Source of the DNA: Candidatus Eiseniibacteriota bacterium
GTDB taxonomy: Bacteria; Eisenbacteria; RBG-16-71-46
DNA: 29,189 nt
Reading direction: 5' to 3'
NCBI GenBank assembly: GCA_044222065.1
Contig: JBGAOA010000042.1
Coordinates: 6,769-35,957 of the forward strand
The translations under genes were made by a program, and so were the position numbers. Positions within the stretch are counted from its first letter, which is position 1. Each line of letters starts with the position of its first letter. Below are positions 2,896 through 29,189 of this stretch, piece after piece. The notes under the pieces are model-generated. The model saw only the letters and a program-made list of their open reading frames with translations. It ran no database searches and was not told where the DNA came from.

Positions 2896-2925
2896 TTGAC
2901 CAAAGTCGTGCGAATCCACTAGGTT
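2896..2925 (+). promoter_or_regulatory. Putative sigma70 promoter of the merR-suf operon
   Basis: TTGACC (2896-2901), 18-nt spacer, TAGGTT (2920-2925), in a locally AT-richer patch. Confidence 0.5.
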
Positions 2926-2933
2926 CTGCGCCC

Positions 2934-2955
2934 ACTCTAACGTTCACGTAAGGGT
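2934..2955. promoter_or_regulatory. MerR-family-type operator palindrome
   Basis: ACTCTAACGT-TC-ACGTAAGGGT is an inverted repeat with 8 of 10 positions matched and an ACGT-N2-ACGT core. It ends 1 nt before the merR ATG. Confidence 0.65.
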
Positions 2956-3507
2956 ATGAGCGCCTCCGCCACCGACCTCCATTCGCCCGCCCTCCTCCGT
3001 GTCGGCGACCTCGCGCGAGCTTCTGGAAAGACCGTTCGCGCGATCCACCTGTACGAGGAGCTGGGCCTGCTGCAGCCCGCCTCGCGCACGAGCGGCGGGT
3101 TCCGGCTGTACGCGCCTTCCGCAATCGAGCGCGTGCGCTGGATCGACCTGCTGTCCGGGCTCGGGTTCTCGCTGCAGGAGATGCGCGACCTGATCCGCAG
3201 CTGGGCCGGGGCCGACGTCGCGCCGCGGGCGATGGAGGACTTGCGGGCGCTGTTCCAGCAGAAGCTCGGTGAGACGCGCGAGCAGGTCGCGCGCTTCCAG
3301 CAGCTCGAGCGCGAACTCCGCGAGGGGCTCGCGTATCTCGAAACCTGCCGCGAGTGCAGCACGCCGTCGTCGACGACCGCGTGCCGCGACTGCTCGCAGG
3401 ATCACGGCACGAAGATCGAGCCGGCGCTCGTCGCCGGCTTCACGTCCGCACCGGGACGCGCGCGTCCTTCGCGTCCCGGATTCGTTCGCATCGAGGACAT
3501 CGGGTAG
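2956..3507 (+). CDS. MerR-family transcriptional regulator with C-terminal CxxC-x8-CxxC motif
   Basis: MerR HTH (LRVGDLARASGKTVRAIHLYEELGLLQPASRTSGGFRLY, LGFSLQEM), a coiled coil, then CRECSTPSSTTACRDCSQDH. Confidence 0.9.
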   Translation: MSASATDLHSPALLRVGDLARASGKTVRAIHLYEELGLLQPASRTSGGFRLYAPSAIERVRWIDLLSGLGFSLQEMRDLIRSWAGADVAPRAMEDLRALFQQKLGETREQVARFQQLERELREGLAYLETCRECSTPSSTTACRDCSQDHGTKIEPALVAGFTSAPGRARPSRPGFVRIEDIG

Positions 3508-3951: not shown

Positions 3952-4751
3952 ATGAGCCAGACGCCTGATCTGATCGTCCAGGACCTCCACGTCGCGGTGG
4001 AGGGGAAGGAAATCCTGAAGGGCCTCAACTTGCAGGTCCGCCGCGGCGAGATCCACGCGATCATGGGCCCGAACGGTTCGGGGAAGAGCACGTTCGCGAA
4101 CACGCTCATGGGCCACCCGCGCTACGAAGTGACGAGCGGCGACATCGTGTTCAAGGGCCAGAGCATCCTCGAGATGGAACCGGACGAGCGTTCGCGCCTC
4201 GGGCTGTTCATGGCGTTCCAGTACCCGGTCGCGATTCCCGGAGTCTCGGTCGCGAACTTCCTGCGAACCGCGCTCAACGCGCGGCTGAACCCGCCCGACG
4301 CCGAGGCCGAGGGCAAGGTGCCGGCGAAGCGCGGCATCAATCCGAAGGACTTCCGCGCGCTGCTCAAGGACAAGATGGCGCTGCTCAAGATGGACGAGTC
4401 GTTCGCGACGCGGTACTTGAACGACGGCTTCTCGGGCGGCGAGAAGAAGCGCGCCGAGATCCTGCAGATGGCGTTGCTCAAGCCCGAGATCGCGATCATG
4501 GACGAGACCGATTCCGGTCTCGACATCGACGCGCTGCGCATCGTCTCGGAGGGCGTGAACGCGCTCGCGGGTCCCGAACTCGGCGTCGTCGTGATCACGC
4601 ACTACCAGCGCATCCTGAACTACATCAAGCCGCATCACGTGCACGTCATGATCGACGGCCGCATCACGCTGTCGGGCGGTCCGGAACTCGCTCAGCAGCT
4701 CGAGACGAAGGGCTACGACTGGGTCCGCGAGGCGAAGGAGGCGGTCAGCCG

Positions 4752-4755
<4 letters not shown>
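3952..4755 (+). CDS. sufC: Fe-S cluster assembly ATPase SufC
   Basis: Motifs [33 protein letters not shown] and [11 protein letters not shown] at 3952 follows GGAG. Confidence 0.97.
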
Positions 4756-6157
<1,402 letters not shown>

Positions 6158-6161
<4 letters not shown>

Positions 6162-7498
6162 GCGCGAACCTCCAGGCGGTGGCCGGACTCGACGCGGAGA
6201 AGGCGGCGCGCGCGGAAGCGCGCGCGAAGGACGCGCGCGAACCGCAGTGGGCGCTCGACCGGCGCCGGGCGGCCGCGGGCACGTTCGGCGCGATCGGGTT
6301 CCCAAAGCGCGACGACGAGCTGTGGCGTCGCACGGACTTCCGCACGCTCGACGGCGCGCTCGCGGGCCTCGACCCGTTCGCGGCCGGCGCGAAGGCTCGC
6401 AACCTCGACGACCTGCCGGCCGGGCTGATCGCGCGGCTCGCGGGCGAGACGACCGGTTACGCGCTCGTCGCCCAGCGCAACGCCGACGTCGTGCTCGAGC
6501 AGACGCATCCCGAACTCGAACGCCAGGGCGTGTTCGTGGGCTCGCTCGAACGCGGCCTGCGGGAACGCGGCGACGCGCTGCGCGAGCGCTTCGGCGCGCT
6601 CATCCACGAGGACTACGACGGCTACACGGCCTTCGCGTCGGCGGTCCGATCGGGCGGGGCGCTCGTCCACGTGCCGGCGGACGTCGAGGCCGCGCTGCCG
6701 ATCCGGCTGTTCCAGTGGCTGGACGGCCCGGGGCTGCTGTCGGCGCCGCGCACGGTCGTGATCGTCGAGCGCGGCGCGAAGGCGACGATCATCGAAGAGC
6801 AGCTGTCGGACGCCGCCGACGGCCTGTCGGCGCACTGCGGCGGCACCGAGGTGTTCGTCGGCGAGGGTGCGCACCTCACCTACGGCACGCTGCAGGACTG
6901 GGGACGCAACGTGTTCCACTACGGGAACCAGCGCGCGCGCGTCGAGCGCGACGGCGAACTGCAGTGGATCCAGACGCTGCTCGGCGGACGCGTGACGAAG
7001 ACGAACTCGTACTTCGACCTCGCCGGCCAGGGCGCGCGCGCGTTCGTGCACGGCTTCATGTTCGGCGACGAGCGCCAGCACTTCCACCTGCACACGCTGC
7101 AGCGGCACCTCGCCCCCCACTGCACGAGCGACTTGCTCATCAAGGGATGCCTGAAGGACCACGCGCGCAGCGTGTACCAGGGGCTCATCCAGGTGAGCGA
7201 AGGCGCGCAGCGCACCGACGCCTACCAGGCGAACCGCAACCTGCTGCTCTCGGACACCGCTCGCGCCGACAGCATTCCCGGCCTCGAGATCCTCGCGAAC
7301 GACGTGCGCTGCACGCACGGCGCGACGATCGGCCACGTGGACGGGGAGCAGATGTACTATCTGATGGCGCGCGGGCTGCCGCGCGTCGAGGCCCAGCGCC
7401 TGATCGTCGAAGGGTTCTTCGCTCCGGTGCTGGACCGCATTCCGCTCGAGCACGTGCGCGCGCAGCTGCGCGACGAGATCGAGCGCAAGATCGGCTGA
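6158..7498 (+). CDS. sufD: Fe-S cluster assembly protein SufD
   Basis: ATGA overlap with the sufB stop. Motifs [34 protein letters not shown] and YYLMARG. The longer 5300-7498 ORF is a shadow extension. Confidence 0.95.
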
Positions 7499-7502
7499 CG
7501 AC

Positions 7503-8774
7503 GTGACTCTTTCGGTTCCGGGCGGGGCGGCGGAGGCCGCCCCGAAGCGCGCGTTCGATCCGCGGGTGATTCGCGAGGACTTCCCGATCTTCCGGACGCC
7601 GCGCGCGAAGCGGCTCGTGTACCTCGACTCGGCGGCGACGTCGCAGAAGCCCGAGTCCGTGCTCGGGGCGATGGACCGCTACTACCGCACCTCGAACGCG
7701 AACATCCACCGCGGCGTGTATTCGCTCGCCGAGGAGGCGACCGCCGCGTACGAAGACGCGCGCCGCAAGGTGGCGGCCTTCGTCGGCGCGTCGAGCCCGC
7801 GCGAGCTGGTGTTCACGCGCAACAGCACCGAGGCGCTGAACCTCGTCGCGCATGCGTGGGGGCGCGCGATGCTGCGCGCCGGCGATGCGATCGTGCTCAC
7901 CGAGATGGAGCATCACGCGAACCTCGTGCCCTGGCAGCTGCTCGCGGCCGAGAAGGGCGTCGAGCTGCGGTTCATTCCCGTGACGCCCGAGGGCGAGCTG
8001 GACCTCGAGGCGTACGACCGGCTGCTCGCGGACGGGCGCGTGAAGCTCGTGTCGTTCGTGCACGTCTCGAACGTCCTCGGCACCGTGAATCCCGCGGCCG
8101 AGATCGTCGCACGCGCGAAGGCGGCGGGCGCGGTCACGGTCGTGGACGGCTCGCAGAGCGCGCCGCACTTCGCCGTGGACGTGAAGGCGATCGGTTGCGA
8201 CTTCTTCGCCTTCACGGCGCACAAGCTGCTCGGCCCGACGGGCATCGGCGCGCTGTGGGGCCGGCGCGACCGGCTCGAGGCGATGCCGCCGTTCCTCGGC
8301 GGAGGCGAGATGATCCGCGAGGTGAAGCTCACGCAATCGACCTGGAACGAGCTGCCGTGGAAGTTCGAGGCCGGAACGATGGCGATCGCCGAGGCCGTCG
8401 GCTTCGGCGCGGCGACGGACTACCTGCTCGCGCTCGGACGCGAGCACGTCTGGGCGCACGACCGCGCGCTCGTCGCCTACGCGCTCGAGCGCGTGCGCGA
8501 GGTGCCGGGACTGCGCGTGCTCGGCCCGGGCGCGGACCGGCGCGGCGGCGTGCTCGCCTTCACGCTCGAGGGCGTGCATCCGCACGATGTCGCGACCGTG
8601 CTCGACGCCGAGGGCGTGTGCGTGCGCGCGGGCCACCACTGCGCGATGCCGCTCCACGAGAAGCTCGGCGCTCCGGCCTCGACGCGCGCGTCGTTCCACT
8701 GCTACTCCGTGAGCGAGGACGTGGATGCGTTCGTCGCGGGCCTGCACGTCGCCCGCAAGGTGTTCGCGCGATGA
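7503..8774 (+). CDS. sufS: Cysteine desulfurase SufS (group II)
   Basis: Motifs YLDSAATSQKP, EHHAN, TAHK (PLP lysine) and RAGHHCA. Confidence 0.96.
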   Translation: MTLSVPGGAAEAAPKRAFDPRVIREDFPIFRTPRAKRLVYLDSAATSQKPESVLGAMDRYYRTSNANIHRGVYSLAEEATAAYEDARRKVAAFVGASSPRELVFTRNSTEALNLVAHAWGRAMLRAGDAIVLTEMEHHANLVPWQLLAAEKGVELRFIPVTPEGELDLEAYDRLLADGRVKLVSFVHVSNVLGTVNPAAEIVARAKAAGAVTVVDGSQSAPHFAVDVKAIGCDFFAFTAHKLLGPTGIGALWGRRDRLEAMPPFLGGGEMIREVKLTQSTWNELPWKFEAGTMAIAEAVGFGAATDYLLALGREHVWAHDRALVAYALERVREVPGLRVLGPGADRRGGVLAFTLEGVHPHDVATVLDAEGVCVRAGHHCAMPLHEKLGAPASTRASFHCYSVSEDVDAFVAGLHVARKVFAR

Positions 8775-9178
8775 GCGGCGGCTGGGAAGACCTGTACCGC
8801 GAGAACGTGCTGGACCACTACCAGCACCCGCGCTGCCACGGCACGATCGAGAGCCCCGACCTCACGTACGAGGACGCGAATCCGCTGTGCGGCGACCGGC
8901 TGCGGATGGACTTCCGCATCCGCGACAACCGCATCGAGCAGGTGCGCTTCAGCGGCCACGGGTGCTCGATCAGTCAGGCTGCGGCCTCGATGCTGTGCGA
9001 GCGCATCGAGGGCCGCTCGCTCGACGAAGTGAAGTCGATCGGGCGCGACGACGTGCTCGAGATGATCGGCATCGAGCTCGGGCCCGTGCGCCTCAAGTGC
9101 GCGCTGCTCGCGCTCAAGACGATGAAGGCCGGCGTCTACGGTCTCACCCAGTGGCCCGGCGAGGAGGAAGGCGCGTGA
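8771..9178 (+). CDS. sufU: SufU/IscU-family sulfur-transfer or scaffold protein
   Basis: Motifs LDHYQHPR, NPLCGD, GCSISQAAAS and RLKCALL. ATGA overlap with sufS. Confidence 0.9.
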   Translation: MSGGWEDLYRENVLDHYQHPRCHGTIESPDLTYEDANPLCGDRLRMDFRIRDNRIEQVRFSGHGCSISQAAASMLCERIEGRSLDEVKSIGRDDVLEMIGIELGPVRLKCALLALKTMKAGVYGLTQWPGEEEGA

Positions 9179-10008
9179 GCGGCAACGGCGGATTCGTGAC
9201 GGTCGCGAGGCTCGGCGACATCCCCGAGGGCGGCGTGCGCGTCGCGCGCGTCGGCGAGACGGAGATCGCGGTGTTCCACGTGGACGGCGCGTACCACGCG
9301 CTCGAGGACGTGTGCACGCACGACGGCGGTCCGCTCGCCGAAGGCGCGCTCGAGGGCCACGAGATCGAGTGCCCGCGCCACGGCGCGCGCTTCGACGTGC
9401 GCACCGGCGCCGTCACGCGCATGCCCGCGACCGCCGCCGTGCCGCGCTGGGTCGTGCGCGTCTTCGACGGCGAGATCCAGGTCGCGCCTCCGGGCACCCC
9501 GGCGGGCGAGTCCGCGACGCCGCCGATCAACCGGCACACGGGCCAGCCCTATCCCGCGGGCGAACTCGACGCGACGACGTTCGGCGCGGGCGCGGCGTTC
9601 GCGGCCGACGCGGCGAACGCGCCCGGCGGGCAGTCGTCCGTGCGCCGGGCGGCCGAAGCGGCGCCGTCCGCGGCCCCCGCGGCGACCCCGCAGGCATCGG
9701 GCGCGGCGCCGAGCCAGCAGGAGCTCGCGATCCGCTCGGCGCTCGAAACCGTGATGGACCCCGAGATCGGCCTGTCGGTGATCGATCTCGGCCTGATCCG
9801 CGAGGTGCTGTTCCTCACCGACCCCTCGCGCACGCACGTCCGCATGATGCTCACGACGCCCTTCTGCCCGTACGCGCCGCAGCTCGTCGCCGAGGTGAAG
9901 CAGGCCGCCGAGAGCGTCGTGCCGCAGGTCTGCGACGTCGAGCTGATGCCCGATCCCTGGAGCCCGGACCTGATGCCGGACCCGGGGCTGCTCGGCTACT
10001 CGTTCTGA
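9175..10008 (+). CDS. Rieske [2Fe-2S] ferredoxin fused to a SufT/DUF59 domain
   Basis: GTGA overlap with sufU and GAGGAGG upstream. Rieske motifs CTH and CPRH, an Ala/Pro-rich linker, then DUF59 motifs DPEIGLSVIDLGLI and TTPFCP. Confidence 0.88.
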   Translation: MSGNGGFVTVARLGDIPEGGVRVARVGETEIAVFHVDGAYHALEDVCTHDGGPLAEGALEGHEIECPRHGARFDVRTGAVTRMPATAAVPRWVVRVFDGEIQVAPPGTPAGESATPPINRHTGQPYPAGELDATTFGAGAAFAADAANAPGGQSSVRRAAEAAPSAAPAATPQASGAAPSQQELAIRSALETVMDPEIGLSVIDLGLIREVLFLTDPSRTHVRMMLTTPFCPYAPQLVAEVKQAAESVVPQVCDVELMPDPWSPDLMPDPGLLGYSF

Positions 10009-23364: not shown

Positions 23365-23928
23365 TCAGGCGCCGGCGCGGCGCGCGGCGCGCCCGAGCCC
23401 GAGCAGCAGGCCTTCGACGATCGCCGCGGGCGCGGGCGGGCAGCCGGGAATGCGCACGTCCACGGGCAGCACCGACTCGACGCCCTCGAGCGTCGCGAAC
23501 GAGCCGGCGCAGAACCCGCCGTGGCACGCGCAGTCGCCGATCGCGACCACGAGCCGGGGGCGCGGCGTCGCTTCGTCGGTGAGCTGCAGCGCCTCGACCG
23601 AGTGGCGGGCGGGCGGGCCCGTGACGAGCAGCGCGTCGGCGTGACGCGGGCTCGCGACGAAGTCGAGTCCGAAGCGCTGAAGGTCGTAGAACGGATTGAG
23701 CAGCGCCTGCAACTCGCTCTCGCACGCGTTGCACGACCCGGCGTCCACGTGCCGCAGCCGCATCGAGCGGCCGAACAACCGCTGCACCTCGACGCGCAGC
23801 GCCTGCCCGAGCACTTCGATCTCGCCCGCGGCGGCGCGTGGCGCGAGCGTCACGCCTTCGGGCACGACGAGCGGCTCGCGGCCCGAGAGCACGCCGCGCT
23901 GCAGCGAGCGCCTCAGCAGTTCCCACAC
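23365..23928 (-). CDS. Group 4 hydrogenase/Ehr small subunit (NuoB/HyfI-like, one [4Fe-4S])
   Basis: Motifs DAGSCNACESE, SPRHADALLVTGP, IGDCA and IPGCPPAP. Confidence 0.92.
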   Translation of the reverse strand: MWELLRRSLQRGVLSGREPLVVPEGVTLAPRAAAGEIEVLGQALRVEVQRLFGRSMRLRHVDAGSCNACESELQALLNPFYDLQRFGLDFVASPRHADALLVTGPPARHSVEALQLTDEATPRPRLVVAIGDCACHGGFCAGSFATLEGVESVLPVDVRIPGCPPAPAAIVEGLLLGLGRAARRAGA

Positions 23929-23950
23929 GGTGACGGCTCCCCGCGCGCGC

Positions 23951-25555
23951 TCATCGGTCCACGCACGCGTAGCAGAGGTTGAACGACTTGTTCACGAGCG
24001 GGAAGTCCGGAACGATGCTGTCGAGCACCGCGACGGCGAGCGCGGGCCAGTTCGCGTGCGACGCGGAACGCAGCCGCCACTCGTCCACGGTGCCGCCCGG
24101 GCCGGTGCGAACCCAGTGCGCGAGCCGTCCGCGCGGCGACTCGACGAGCCCGAGCCCCGAGGCGCCCGGCGGGATCTCGCCGAGGTGCGTCGTGAGCGGC
24201 CCGCCCGGCAGCCGCAGCAGCAGCTGATCGGCGACGTTCAGCGACTCGTGCAGCTCGTCGAAGCGCAGCTCGACGCGCGCGAGCGCGTCGCCGGCTTCGC
24301 GCAGCGGCACGACGAAGTCCACGTCGCGGTAGAACGCGTAGGGATGGTCGCGCCGCGTGTCGCCCGGCAGTCCCGCGGCGCGAGCGGCGGGGCCGACGAC
24401 GCCGAGGTCGCGCGCGGTCGCGGTCGCGAGCGTGCCCGCGCCGGTGAAGCGCTCCACGACCGAGGCGTTCGCGCGCAGCGCGCGCGCGAGCGACTCGAAG
24501 TCCGCGCGCACGTCGGCGAGCACGGCGCGCAGCCACGTCTGCTGCGATTCGTCGAGGTCGCGCAGCACGCCGCCGGGCACGGCGATGCCGCGCAGGAAGC
24601 GGTGTCCGAACGCCGCCTCGATCGCGCGCTGCAGGACCTCCTTCAGGCGCGCCGCCTCGATCGAGCCGACGACCCAGGCGACCGTCGAGAACGCGAGCGC
24701 GAGGTCGCTCGCGTGGTTGTAGAGGCGTTCGAACTCGGCCGCGAGCGTGCGCAGCGCGCGGGCGCGCGCCGGGGCGAGCACGCCCGTCGCCTCCTCGAGC
24801 GCCTGCGAAAACGCGAGCGCGTGCGAGAACGCGCACAGGCCGCACGCGCGCTCGGCGATCTCGAGCGCGCGGCCGGCGCTCGCGCCGCGCGCGAGCGTCT
24901 CGAGTCCGCGGTACGTCCAGCCGAGCCGCACGTCGAGCTGCGCGATCGCCTCGCCGACGCTCGCGAAACGGAAATGCCCGGGCTCGATGATGCCGGCGTG
25001 GATCGGGCCCACCGGGATCTCGAACACGCCTTCGCCCGCGACCGGGCGGGCCTCGAAGCGCGGCGCCCACGCGAGTCCCTCGGGCGGCGCGAAGTCGCGG
25101 CGCAACGGGTGCGTGCCGGCGGGCCAGCCGGCGTGCGCGACGAGCGGCCGCGGGTCGGGGTGTCCCGCCGGCACGACGCCGAGCAGGTCGCGCAGCTCGC
25201 GTTCGAGCCAGTGCGCGGCCGGGCAGCCCGGCGTCAGCGACGGATAGGACGGCGCGTCCTCGGGGACCGCGGCGACGAGCGTGAGCAGCGCGTCCTCCGG
25301 GGCCATCGAGAACACCGCGTGCAGCCGGAAGCGGCCGTGCGGATCGCGCTCGTCGAGCGCGAACGCCGTGACGAGGGCCCCGCCCCATTCGGCGTGCAGC
25401 GCGCGCGCGACGTCCGCGAGCCGCGCGGCCGGAACGACGACGAGGTGTTCGCGCACGCTGCCGCGGTCGGCGTCGATGACGGCGTCCGCGAAGCGCTCCT
25501 TGAGCCCGCGCAGCGCGCGCTCCAGCGGGAACAGCTCGCCGCTCTCGCGCTTCAC
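23951..25555 (-). CDS. Group 4 hydrogenase/Ehr large subunit (NuoC-NuoD fusion, HyfG/HycE-like)
   Basis: GTGA overlap with the hyfF-like gene. Motifs WLERELRDLLG, GPIHAGIIEPGHFRF, ERACGLC, VESPRG and C-terminal NKSFNLCYACVDR. Confidence 0.92.
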   Translation of the reverse strand: MKRESGELFPLERALRGLKERFADAVIDADRGSVREHLVVVPAARLADVARALHAEWGGALVTAFALDERDPHGRFRLHAVFSMAPEDALLTLVAAVPEDAPSYPSLTPGCPAAHWLERELRDLLGVVPAGHPDPRPLVAHAGWPAGTHPLRRDFAPPEGLAWAPRFEARPVAGEGVFEIPVGPIHAGIIEPGHFRFASVGEAIAQLDVRLGWTYRGLETLARGASAGRALEIAERACGLCAFSHALAFSQALEEATGVLAPARARALRTLAAEFERLYNHASDLALAFSTVAWVVGSIEAARLKEVLQRAIEAAFGHRFLRGIAVPGGVLRDLDESQQTWLRAVLADVRADFESLARALRANASVVERFTGAGTLATATARDLGVVGPAARAAGLPGDTRRDHPYAFYRDVDFVVPLREAGDALARVELRFDELHESLNVADQLLLRLPGGPLTTHLGEIPPGASGLGLVESPRGRLAHWVRTGPGGTVDEWRLRSASHANWPALAVAVLDSIVPDFPLVNKSFNLCYACVDR

Positions 25556-27015
25556 GGCCGCAGCACCTCGGCCGCGCGCTCGATCAGCGCGCGCACCGGC
25601 GCGGGCAGCCAGACGCCGAACAGCACGAGCAGCGCGGCGAGCCCCCAGAGCGGCGCGTGCGCGAACGCCGGGACGCGCATCCGCGCGTCGTCGCGCGGCC
25701 TGCCGATCGCCATGCGCGTCCAGTGGAACGCGAGCCCGGCGAAGATCACGGCGAGCGCGGCGAACGCGACGCCGACGGCGAGCACGTGTCCGCCCGCGAG
25801 TCCGCCGCCGAGCGCGAACCACTCCGAGAGGAACAGCGACGTCGGCGGCAAGCCCGCGAGCGCGATGCCGGACACGGCGAACAGCGGCGCGAGCGCGGGG
25901 AACGTCTCGACCACGCCGATCCAGCGGTCCATGCGCCGCGTGCCGTAGCCGGTCGCGAGCGAGCCGCCGAGCAGGAACGCGAGCGCCTTCGCGAGCGACT
26001 GGCCGACGAGGTGGAACAGCGCGCCCGTGACCGCGAGCGGCGTGCCGAAGCCGACCGCGAGCGTGACGAGGCCGGCGTTCTCGAGGCTCGAGTAGGCGAG
26101 CAGCCGCTTGTAGTCGCCCTGCAGCAGCAGGAACGGCACGCTCACGAGCAGCGACAGCGCGCCGAACACGACGAGCAGCCCGCCGGACCACGGCGACTCG
26201 AGTCCGCGAGCGCACAGCGAGTGGAAGCGGAACAGCGCGACGAGCGACACCGCGAGCAGTCCGCCGGACATCGTCGCGCTCACGGGCGTCGGCGCCTGGC
26301 CGTAGGCGTCGGGCGCCCAGGTGTGGAGCGGTGCGAGTCCGGCCTTCGCGCCGTAGCCGACGAGCGCGAACAGGAACGACAGCCGCAGCAGGCGCGCGTC
26401 GAGGTGCGGAGCGACCTCGCGCAGCGCGGCCCACTGCAGGCCGGCCGCGCCCTCGCCGAACACGCCGACCGCCGAGGCGTAGAGCAGCACGGTCGCGAGC
26501 AGCGCGAACACGACGCCGACCGAGCACAGGATGAGGTACTTCCACGCGGCCTCGAGCGCGCCGGGCCGCGGGTAGGCGCTCACGAGCACGGCCGAGGCGA
26601 GCGTGCTCGTCTCGATCGCGATCCACAGCAGGCCGAGGTTGTTCGCGATCGCGGCGACGACGAGCGATCCGACGAGCGCCTGGAAGAGCGCGTGGAAGCG
26701 CTGCGGCGTCCACCGCGCCCCGAGTTCCGACGCGACGAGCGGAAGGTAGCCGGCGCCGTACCACGACGACGCGAGCGCGACGACCGCGACGAGGCACAGC
26801 ACGAGCGCCGCGAGCGGGTCCGCGAGCAGCCAGCCGCCGCCGCCGACCGCCGGCGCTCCGCCGAGCGCGCCCGCCGCGACCGCGAGCGCGCCCGCGAGCA
26901 CGAGCGCGTTCGCGCCGATCGCGACGCGCGCCGGCGTGCGCGCCCCCGGGACCACGAGGCACGCGATCGCCGAGAGCGGCGGCAGCAGCGCGAGGGCGAG
27001 CAGCAGGACGTTCAC
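25552..27015 (-). CDS. hyfF: HyfF-like proton-translocating antiporter subunit
   Basis: Motifs LLWIAIE, LEAAWKYLILCSVG, GYGAKAGLAPLHTWAPDAY and KRLLAYSS. Confidence 0.88.
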   Translation of the reverse strand: MNVLLLALALLPPLSAIACLVVPGARTPARVAIGANALVLAGALAVAAGALGGAPAVGGGGWLLADPLAALVLCLVAVVALASSWYGAGYLPLVASELGARWTPQRFHALFQALVGSLVVAAIANNLGLLWIAIETSTLASAVLVSAYPRPGALEAAWKYLILCSVGVVFALLATVLLYASAVGVFGEGAAGLQWAALREVAPHLDARLLRLSFLFALVGYGAKAGLAPLHTWAPDAYGQAPTPVSATMSGGLLAVSLVALFRFHSLCARGLESPWSGGLLVVFGALSLLVSVPFLLLQGDYKRLLAYSSLENAGLVTLAVGFGTPLAVTGALFHLVGQSLAKALAFLLGGSLATGYGTRRMDRWIGVVETFPALAPLFAVSGIALAGLPPTSLFLSEWFALGGGLAGGHVLAVGVAFAALAVIFAGLAFHWTRMAIGRPRDDARMRVPAFAHAPLWGLAALLVLFGVWLPAPVRALIERAAEVLRP

Positions 27016-27022
27016 GCGCGCC

Positions 27023-27694
27023 TCATCCCTTGAGCGTCGTCAGACGCTTCGTGTCCGCGGACTCGAACGTCTCTTCGATGCGGCCGACGAACAGCCCGAG
27101 CAGAGCGACGCCGACGAGCACGTCGAGCAGCACGCCCATCTCGACGACGAGCGGCATGCCGTACGTGAGCGACACGGCAGCGAGGAAGATCGCGTTCTCG
27201 ACGATCACGAGCCCGACGATCTGCAGCAGCGGCTGCCGCCGAGTCACCATGAGGAACAGCCCGAGCAGCGCGGTCGCCATCGAGACGGGCAGGCACGAGC
27301 CGAGCACCGTCGCGGGCGAGCCGAACAGCTCGCGCGTCTCGGCGAACGCCAGCACGACGAGCGCGCCGCACAGCAGCGTGCCCACGGGGACCGCGACGAG
27401 CGGCGCGGGCTCGGCGCGCTTCGCGGCGTCGAGCGCGCGCGTGCGCAGCAGGAACGGAATGAGGACGCCCTTGAAGCCGAGCACGAGCGCCGCCGCGATC
27501 CAGATGTGCCGCGCGCCCGTGGAGCCCGCGACGACCGCGGCGATGAGCGCGAGGCTCACCGAGTTCCACGCGTACCCGGCCACGCAGTCGGCGGGGCGCC
27601 GCCGCGTCACGGCGTAGAGCGCGGACAGCAGGAACGCGCCCGCGAGCAGGTTGAGCGCGCTCGAGCGCGGCAGCCAGTCGAGTTCGGGGATCAT
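27023..27694 (-). CDS. hyfE: HyfE-like membrane subunit
   Basis: ATGA overlap with the hyfC-like gene. Motifs KGVLIPFLL, GLVIVENAI and GMPLVVEMGVLLDV. Confidence 0.85.
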   Translation of the reverse strand: MIPELDWLPRSSALNLLAGAFLLSALYAVTRRRPADCVAGYAWNSVSLALIAAVVAGSTGARHIWIAAALVLGFKGVLIPFLLRTRALDAAKRAEPAPLVAVPVGTLLCGALVVLAFAETRELFGSPATVLGSCLPVSMATALLGLFLMVTRRQPLLQIVGLVIVENAIFLAAVSLTYGMPLVVEMGVLLDVLVGVALLGLFVGRIEETFESADTKRLTTLKG

Positions 27695-28629
27695 CGGAGC
27701 AACGAGTCCGAGGACAGCGCGAGCAGCGAGAGCAGGAACGCCATGCCGAGGAACTCGGGGATGCGGAACAGCCGCAGCCGCGCGACGAGCGACTCGGTCA
27801 CGGCGACGACGAGCGCGAACAGCGCGAGCTTGAGCGCCCACGCGATCGCGCCCGCGAGCATCGCGCCGGGCTCGGCGTCGAGCGCGATGCCCCACGGCAG
27901 GAACAGGTTCGCGACGAGCGTGAACAGCGTGATCTGGCGCAGCGCCGCCGACCACTCGAGCAGCGCGAGGTGGCGCCCCGAGTAGTCGAGCACGAGGCCT
28001 TCGTGGACCATCGTCAGTTCGAGGTGCGTGACCGGGTTGTCCACCGGGACGCGGCCGGTCTCGGCGAGCGCGACGATCCACACGGCCGCGAGCGCGAGCA
28101 GGTGCGAAGGCGAGAGCCAGCCGTGCGGCGCGCGCGCGACGGCGCCGCTGATGCCTGCGAGATCGGTCGTGCCGGCGCCGAGAGCGAGCGTGAACACCGC
28201 GAGCATGAGCGCGGGCTCGGCGAGCGCCGACAGCGCGAGGTGGCGGCTCGCGGCCATGCCGCCGAACGTCGTGCCGCATTCGAGCGCGCCGAACGCGAGC
28301 AGCATGCGCACGCCGGCGAGCAGCGCGACCGTGAGCACGAGGTCGCCCGTGAACGACAGCGGGCCTTCGACCGTGAGGACCGGGATCCACGTCGCGATCG
28401 CGACCGAGGCGCCGAACACGACGTACGGCACGGCGCGCGCGAGCCACGACGCGTCGTTCGAGACGATGGACTCCTTGTGGAGCAGCCGCGCGAGGTCGGC
28501 GTAGCGCTGGAACAGCGGCGCCCCGCGCCGCATCTGGAGCCGCGCGCGCAGCTTCGCGATCGCGCCGGCGAACAGCGGCGCGAGCGCCACGAGCAGCAGC
28601 GTCTGGAGCAGCACGACGAGTGCGCTCAT
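27691..28629 (-). CDS. hyfC: HyfC/HycD (NuoH-like) membrane subunit
   Basis: Motifs ARLQMRRGAPLFQRYADL, FGGMAASR and AETGRVPVDNPVTHLELTMVHE. Confidence 0.9.
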   Translation of the reverse strand: MSALVVLLQTLLLVALAPLFAGAIAKLRARLQMRRGAPLFQRYADLARLLHKESIVSNDASWLARAVPYVVFGASVAIATWIPVLTVEGPLSFTGDLVLTVALLAGVRMLLAFGALECGTTFGGMAASRHLALSALAEPALMLAVFTLALGAGTTDLAGISGAVARAPHGWLSPSHLLALAAVWIVALAETGRVPVDNPVTHLELTMVHEGLVLDYSGRHLALLEWSAALRQITLFTLVANLFLPWGIALDAEPGAMLAGAIAWALKLALFALVVAVTESLVARLRLFRIPEFLGMAFLLSLLALSSDSLLR

Positions 28630-29189
28630 CGCGCGAACACCAGCAGCAGGACGAGCGTCACGAGCACGTAGGCGAGGTAGACGTGCAGGTCGCCGGCCTG
28701 CACGCGGCGCGCCTGCTCCGACGCCCACAGCACGCCCTGGACGAGCGGCTGGTACAGGCGCTCCTCGACGAACGAGCCGACCCCGCGGTGGCGCACGGAC
28801 TTCTTCGCGAAGTACGGCGCGCCCTGTTCGAGCACTTCCATCTCGTTCTCGTTGCGGAGCACGGGCGCGAAGATGAGGCGCAGCGGCTTCGTGAATCCGA
28901 GCGCCGAGTACTGCATGCGCGGGCCGAGCGCGACGCCGCACGACCACGAGGGCGCGCGCCGCACGCCGCCGCGCAGGCCCCGCAGCGTGCCCCACGCGAA
29001 CGCGAGCGCGACGAACAACAGCAACAGCGCGAGCACCGCGACGGGCGAGACGCCGCCCGGAGCGCCCGCGCTCGCGACGAGCACGAGGCCGCGGCCCGCG
29101 ACGAGCCCGGCGGGGGACGCCTCGGGGCCGAGCACGAGCCGCATCGGCGCGGTGAGCGCGGGGAGCCACACGGGCGCGGCCGCGCCCCA
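28626..29189 (-). CDS. hyfB: HyfB/HycC-like antiporter subunit (3' part only)
   Basis: C-terminal motifs WSCG...RMQYSALGFTKPL and VQAGDLHVYLAY. The gene runs off the window end. Confidence 0.8.
   Translation of the reverse strand, partial: WGAAAPVWLPALTAPMRLVLGPEASPAGLVAGRGLVLVASAGAPGGVSPVAVLALLLLFVALAFAWGTLRGLRGGVRRAPSWSCGVALGPRMQYSALGFTKPLRLIFAPVLRNENEMEVLEQGAPYFAKKSVRHRGVGSFVEERLYQPLVQGVLWASEQARRVQAGDLHVYLAYVLVTLVLLLVFAR

Follow-up and report, generated by a model that had tools for sequence, protein, structure and literature searches.

A MerR-family protein with four cysteines is probably an undescribed type of regulator for iron-sulfur cluster assembly in two bacterial phyla

The gene at the head of the suf operon in the window (the whole stretch of 29,189 nucleotides that was analyzed) encodes a MerR-family protein with four cysteines, which probably represents an undescribed third type of controller for Fe-S cluster assembly, found in two phyla. 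The discussion section of PMC9973013 gives Rrf2 proteins and SufR as the known dedicated regulators of Fe-S biogenesis. The four-cysteine family is real, conserved and apparently undescribed, and its scaffold is apparently not one known for control of Fe-S biogenesis. The regulator most likely works like IscR and RisR, on a MerR scaffold. The sequence-only reading had proposed control of Fe-S biogenesis, and this proposal is supported at the sequence level by a conserved operator, by mutual replacement with Rrf2 genes and by trans sites at sufB.

Regulator gene and suf operon

The following features were assigned to the regulator gene and its operon:

2806-2834, + strand, terminator-like hairpin closing the upstream gene (12 pairs, all G-C, short T-rich tail)
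2896-2901, + strand, predicted -35 hexamer TTGACC, inferred from conservation
2920-2925, + strand, predicted -10 hexamer TAGGTT, with TA..TT conserved
2934-2955, no strand, predicted 22-bp MerR-type palindromic operator, 8 bp past the -10 and touching the ATG
2956-3507, + strand, four-Cys MerR-family regulator (183 aa ORF; Pfam, subfamily HMM, homolog and model evidence)
3346-3393, + strand, CxxC-x8-CxxC motif (Cys131/134/143/146) at the end of the dimerisation helix
3513-3878, + strand, iscA-type A-type carrier (PF01521, TIGR00049)
3952-4755, + strand, sufC (TIGR01978, over cut-off)
4752-6161, + strand, sufB (TIGR01980, over cut-off)
6158-7498, + strand, sufD (TIGR01981, over cut-off)
7503-8774, + strand, sufS (TIGR01979, over cut-off)
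8771-9178, + strand, sufU (PF01592)
9175-10008, + strand, Rieske ferredoxin fused to SufT (FeS_assembly_P) in one 277-aa ORF (PF00355 and PF01883)

The regulator is the first gene of a tightly packed suf operon, as the sequence-only reading had stated. The order is merR-iscA-sufC-sufB-sufD-sufS-sufU-Rieske/SufT, with 5 nt between merR and iscA and subsequent gaps of 73, -4, -4, 4, -4 and -4 nt. The same reading began the feature at 2896, but this start had to be corrected to the ORF at 2956-3507: a frame opened by the TTG at 2896 is closed by a TAG stop at 2920, and thus 2896 is the -35 hexamer and not a gene start. It also placed the gene behind a terminator; a hairpin is present at 2806-2834, although the number of such hairpins in the scan (1 found versus 1.2 expected in shuffles) is by itself not above chance.

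A generic sigma-70 scan returned no promoters, TAGGTT falling below its threshold, and so the promoter was called from conservation. In the comparison of upstream regions, the window's lineage keeps TTGaC at a distance of 37-38 bp upstream of the operator, and the predicted promoter spacer is 18 bp in the window and mostly 17 bp in relatives. The RNA runs consisted of short contig pieces only, from which the transcript start, the strand and a single transcript could not be read.

Other features of the region were also recorded. The Rieske-SufT fusion (9175-10008) contains a long Ala/Pro linker, and the two domains are fused in 6 of the 40 related loci in which both were seen. In L031, L047, L053, L063, L065, L070, L077, L079 and L093, sufB was matched as two pieces with an insert of about 1 kb between them, possibly an intein or an intron. 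Genes for a Hydrogenase-4/Ehr-like membrane complex lie on the minus strand at 23365-29169, where the contig runs on past the window; one frame joins complex I 30 kDa and 49 kDa domains and carries CGLC and CYAC motifs, and other genes encode a small subunit and antiporter-like subunits. The genes upstream of the regulator, at 217-2788, encode a large secreted protein and a beta-barrel protein resembling PorV (PF19572 match below cut-off); the latter has at least six paralogs in the genome.

Cysteine motif and predicted structure

The Pfam models MerR, MerR_1 and MerR-DNA-bind (PF13411, PF00376 and PF09278) all scored over cut-off and define an N-terminal MerR winged helix-turn-helix (HTH). 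The protein has exactly four cysteines, Cys131, Cys134, Cys143 and Cys146, with codons starting at 3346, 3355, 3382 and 3391. Together with His150 (3403-3405) they give the CxxC-x8-CxxC-x3-H arrangement that the sequence-only reading had described. That reading had named conservation of the cysteines as a check, and homologs do keep them: the four cysteines and His150 were invariant in 120 of the 120 close homologs listed, from 2334 found, and the four-Cys motif was kept in 109 of 110 genome loci (one genome is counted twice), with the spacing C-x2/3-C-x7/9-C-x2-C. The full motif is missing from one family member, at L157. Of the 150 best distant representatives, 114 fit the four-Cys pattern and 36 do not, many of the 36 being visibly truncated or frameshifted, and the spacer between the CxxC pairs reaches up to 20 residues. 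Alignment A1 was built from sequences picked for four cysteines, so its invariant columns carry no evidential weight.

An equivalent of His150 was found in 70 of 71 Eisenbacteria-type loci versus only 2 of 38 Myxococcota loci. Since the histidine is absent from most Myxococcota loci it is not family-wide, and it was rejected as a fifth ligand for the family as a whole; it is specific to a lineage and probably not essential as a ligand.

In the AF2 model (mean pLDDT 88.5), a helix at residues 89-131 accompanies the MerR HTH and ends in the Cys loop. Fold searches returned MerR proteins, and SoxR was first in one of them (Z 12.8, rmsd 4.4, 103 residues), barely above other MerRs. Sequence and fold matches in the PDB covered the HTH and coiled coil, and no solved match over the Cys loop stood out. 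The long helix is predicted to form a MerR-type antiparallel coiled-coil homodimer, and residues of the Cys loop lie within the dimer interface of the model. The homodimer prediction scored 0.75 versus 0.00 for the best control, with contact agreement between runs of at least 79% and pLDDT of at least 79. The mark for this score is reached by 20 of 30 solved homodimers and by 1 of 23 single chains, and a cluster ligand is unscored in the prediction; the high score may stem from the protein's resemblance to solved MerR dimers. The ESM Atlas gave MerR clusters with automatic names only, and a cluster look-up for 10 proteins returned generic names and no cultured-strain record.

Comparison with characterized regulators

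The protein scored below the cut-off of every characterized MerR subfamily: 63.5 versus 147.4 bits for TIGR02044 (CueR), 58.8 versus 167.95 bits for TIGR02043 (ZntR), 37.3 versus 116.9 bits for TIGR01950 (SoxR) and 21.1 versus 175 bits for NF041849 (NmlR). These scores speak against membership in a characterized clade (ZntR, CueR or SoxR), which the sequence-only reading had listed as grounds against its proposal. The 108 aligned family members match the same subfamily models weakly (best E 5e-23). The Rrf2 domain PF02082 was unmatched on the protein, and the SufR model TIGR02702 had no match on the protein or in the genome.

The best HMM and PDB sequence matches were the metal sensors ZntR, CueR, CadR/PbrR and MerR, over the HTH and coiled coil only. 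The metal sensor models score 54-64 against cut-offs of 143-168, and no metal-efflux gene adjoins this regulator. In addition, CueR has a two-Cys loop in place of the four cysteines found here, and ZntR has a CCx3Hx4C loop and a Cys at the start of helix 5, both of which are absent. Database labels such as “copper efflux regulator” are unsupported.

SoxR is, to our knowledge, the sole Fe-S-binding MerR type otherwise known. It resembles the present protein in having the MerR fold and four cysteines after the dimerisation helix. However, its cluster motif, as given in the SoxR passages of the literature, is CIGCGCLSxxC and not CxxC-x8-CxxC, the putative targets of the present family are Fe-S assembly genes, and no 19-20 bp spacer encloses the operator here. 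In SoxR, [2Fe-2S] sits at the equivalent place in the MerR fold, according to the MerR passages of a 2024 review (PMC11672702), which name SoxR as the Fe-S member and name no such four-Cys clade.

IscR and RisR (the latter from Myxococcus xanthus; PMC9973013) share several traits with the present regulator. Each is encoded by the first gene of an Fe-S assembly operon, has conserved cysteines, has a palindromic site at both isc and suf promoters and occupies the same slot in sister lineages. They differ in having an Rrf2 fold with three cysteines, where the present protein has a MerR fold with four (CxxC-x8-CxxC), and in their operators, the RisR core being GAC-N7-GTC (PMC9973013) compared with the 22-bp palindrome found here. 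The same paper reports that holo RisR represses isc and suf, with the cluster demonstrated, and that cluster loss relieves the block; cluster and repression have thus been shown for RisR, and we infer them for the present family. SufR of Synechocystis and Mycobacterium is likewise a non-Rrf2 regulator recruited to suf, and it binds Fe-S, but its HTH is described there as ArsR-like (PMC9973013) and not of the MerR fold. MliR, a MerR-like iron regulator, is alike in family and in its iron-related role, but is without an effector domain and without cysteines in the passages that describe it (PMC9478572). The word MerR occurs nowhere in the main text of the RisR paper (PMC9973013). A search of the open full-text literature found no paper on a MerR regulator of isc or suf.

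Linkage to iron-sulfur assembly genes

A total of 41 related genomes were searched, and an ortholog was defined by E below 1e-45. An ortholog was found in 27 of the 41, in every case directly before iscA (26) or sufC (1). The best 80 of 407 matches were taken from a GTDB scan, in a survey that covers two phyla. In these best 80 loci the next gene was iscA in 63, iscS in 9 and sufC in 6, so that 78 of 80 precede one of these genes; the other 2 end at a contig edge. The closest named relatives among the GTDB matches listed are Candidatus Eisenbacteria. In the window's phylum, 86 of 151 genomes have a match at E 1e-28, and presence goes by whole families. The 151 Myxococcota genomes gave 42 strong matches in 37 genomes, 36 of them preceding iscS and 6 preceding an ECF sigma gene. 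A Nannocystaceae strain (L118) carries a family member. The linked machinery is suf in Ca. Eisenbacteria and isc in Myxococcota, and SUF and ISC, two non-homologous machineries, have this regulator family in common. The synteny check named in the sequence-only reading therefore tied homologs to Fe-S assembly genes in two phyla.

A quick tree, with SH-aLRT support only and with 44 of its 86 inner branches open, grouped the 67 core proteins with isc/suf linkage in one branch (SH-aLRT 94). Next to this core branch come the ECF-linked paralogs, and other four-Cys MerRs lie further out. In L167-L172 (G158, G118, G113, G153, G138 and G178) the ECF-linked paralogs precede an ECF sigma gene, with a similar operator, and L263 (G148) has an ECF sigma gene with the operator and no MerR beside it. 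These loci would form a second branch of the regulon.

Eleven weaker Myxococcota matches form a separate group, in which all 8 members examined keep the four cysteines and are without the operator and without an Fe-S neighbor. Sister-group MerRs (L173-L180, L026 and L274) have CxxC-x8/9-CxxC and no Fe-S linkage; their next genes include folE, a Lon N-domain gene and DUF2203. Two copies in G038 similarly keep the motif without operator or Fe-S neighbor. Since CxxC-x8/9-CxxC occurs in a clade that lacks Fe-S linkage, the motif alone is not an Fe-S signature. In G040 (L025:3223-3760) a distant four-Cys MerR from the outer tree group stands before iscS-iscA; its promoter has a 17-bp spacer and a palindrome that overlies the -35 box, and an Rrf2 gene heads suf in that genome.

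Exchange with Rrf2 genes

The position held by the four-Cys MerR gene is held by Rrf2 genes in other genomes. For example, 33 relatives have a sufC match, and in 7 of them the ortholog is missing from suf. Each of these 7, of which 6 belong to one family, has an Rrf2 gene some 1.6 kb upstream of sufC, and the order was rrf2-sufB-sufC in all 3 loci fetched from the 7. An Rrf2 gene over cut-off is also present in 6 of the 27 genomes with an ortholog, and in none of them does it directly head suf. In G013 an Rrf2 gene lies about 1 kb before the ortholog; it was rejected as a linked regulator, as another gene separates the two and the proximity looks incidental. In Myxococcota, 31 of 48 iscU operons are headed by a four-Cys MerR gene. 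The other 17 comprise 11 with Rrf2 directly before iscS, 5 with no regulator in the fetched region and 1 at a contig end, and no operator was found in these 17 (best -2.2 bits). Searches of the window's own assembly, which is 94% complete, found neither Fur nor SufR nor IscU, and likewise no Rrf2 over cut-off and no further protein that fits the family profile.

Predicted operator and trans sites

The palindrome at 2934-2955, which we take to be similar to MerR-type operators, was absent from the sequence-only reading. Its consensus in the upstream regions, A(A/C)TCTnAC(G/C)YnnRCGTRAGGGT, is conserved in both phyla. At 36.2 bits it is the sole site above 12 bits in the 4.2-Mb assembly, where no second such site was found and iron-uptake and peroxide genes have none. 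When 100 upstream regions were compared with the seed, their best matches covered 14-20 of its 20 letters; among 2000 shuffles, 2 reached 15 or more. With one mismatch allowed, the operator pattern matched 33 of the 37 Myxococcota genomes that have the family versus 3 of the 114 that lack it, and a reversed control pattern matched 3 of 37 and 16 of 114, respectively. The pattern matches in the three genomes without the family (G087, G104 and G106) are not on sufB contigs and were discarded, as they look like chance.

Sites were also found at unlinked genes. All six Myxococcota genomes that have both the family and a separate sufB carry a site about 35-130 bp before sufB (25.5, 24.7, 23.0, 22.4, 19.0 and 11.5 bits, the weak one in G153), and none has an Rrf2 gene adjoining sufB. 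The scoring matrix was trained without the sufB sites, and five of the six genomes are kin on one supported branch and so are not independent. As controls, 18 of the 82 sufB genomes without the family were used: none has a site (best 7.8 bits) and 14 have Rrf2 beside suf. Further sites lie before a lone iscA (G157) and the ECF sigma gene of G148, and three other matches in family-bearing genomes have no clear target. In G058 (L267 and L268), the operator recurs before a gene for a CRP-family regulator and before cysM-JAB-moeB, which encodes a sulfur-carrier route to cysteine. The trait of IscR and RisR of having their own site at both isc and suf promoters was thus found here, as sequence sites.

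Ligand and mode of action

From these sites and neighborhoods, the four-Cys MerR very probably binds the palindrome and controls these operons. In the proposed mechanism, a homodimer would bind the 22-bp palindrome, which covers the position where transcription of its own operon is predicted to begin. The holo form, with each subunit carrying an Fe-S cluster on its CxxC-x8-CxxC loop, would block transcription of merR-iscA-sufCBDSU-Rieske/sufT. Under iron shortage or cluster damage, the apo form would release or loosen its hold and the operon would be made. That the four cysteines hold an Fe-S cluster is reasonably likely, and given a cluster it is likely that the holo form represses in the window's lineage. 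We lean modestly toward the complete reading, in which a feedback regulator of Fe-S biogenesis on a MerR scaffold represses in its cluster-bound holo form and frees the operon on cluster loss, in a family of Eisenbacteria and a quarter of the sampled Myxococcota that trades places with Rrf2 genes.

The same regulator with the same targets might instead bind a Zn or Fe ion with its four cysteines, or use them as a thiol/disulfide switch, and sense iron or oxidative stress. We regard this as unlikely, although several observations fit it. Two CxxC pairs are the usual form of a Zn site and also of rubredoxin-type sites. The motif persists in the sister clade without Fe-S linkage, the spacer between the Cys pairs varies from 7-9 residues in genome loci up to 20 in distant representatives, and the lack of a Fur match in the assembly leaves the slot of an iron sensor open. 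However, the family is interchangeable with Rrf2-type genes at isc and suf, and the genome's sole strong site belongs to suf; genes for iron uptake or peroxide have none. In addition, a near-identical motif, CX2CX7CX2C, is a proven Fe-S site: anamorsin binds [2Fe-2S] with it, and [4Fe-4S] is reported for yeast Dre2, in the sections of PMC8251831 on these proteins. By this precedent such spacing can hold either type of cluster.

A second alternative accepts the cluster but has the protein act as a classical MerR, remaining on the DNA and activating by untwisting when the cluster is oxidized or lost, or as a dual switch that depends on the promoter. The layout of the promoter bears on this alternative, which we consider quite unlikely. 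Canonical MerR activators need the operator within a 19-20 bp spacer (PMC11672702, section 3.2.3). The window does not have this layout, as the operator lies 8 bp downstream of the -10 and the promoter spacer is 18 bp, and it thus fits repression. The promoter is wholly upstream of the operator in 44 of 55 loci of the window's lineage and the in-spacer pattern occurs in 0 of 55. The in-spacer pattern is also missing from the Myxococcota (0 of 37), where the distance to the -35 varies widely, against the fixed geometry of an activator. A second site is present at 13 of the 37 Myxococcota promoters. On the other hand, 9 of 16 loci in another Eisenbacteria subgroup have the operator inside an 18-bp spacer, between the -35, T(A/T)GAC, and the -10, TACGAT, a layout nearer to that of a classical MerR promoter. 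In the window's lineage a stretch resembling TATGA comes after the operator. Inducers generally leave the operator affinity of MerR proteins unchanged, as stated in the MerR passages of PMC11672702, and SoxR was the top fold match, if barely above other MerRs. Overall, the position of the operator suggests repression, as the feedback reading has it.

Lastly, a regulator that controls only itself or other targets, with its place before isc and suf an inherited gene order, would suit the single site in the window's genome, at the regulator's own gene, and the paralogs that head ECF sigma genes with the same kind of site, but this is very improbable given that the regulator lies 5 nt from Fe-S genes here and heads two different machineries, that Rrf2 is excluded from its slot and that sites occur at unlinked sufB and iscA.

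Significance

If the feedback reading is true, the family would be the second Fe-S-binding MerR type after SoxR, with the opposite logic. A MerR-fold solution would be added to those of Rrf2 and SufR, its operator, ligands and targets all being predicted. The common misannotation of these proteins as copper-efflux regulators would be corrected. The finding also bears on how MerR dimers can repress instead of activating, and it may explain how cluster supply is controlled in the many myxobacteria that have no IscR or RisR at isc.
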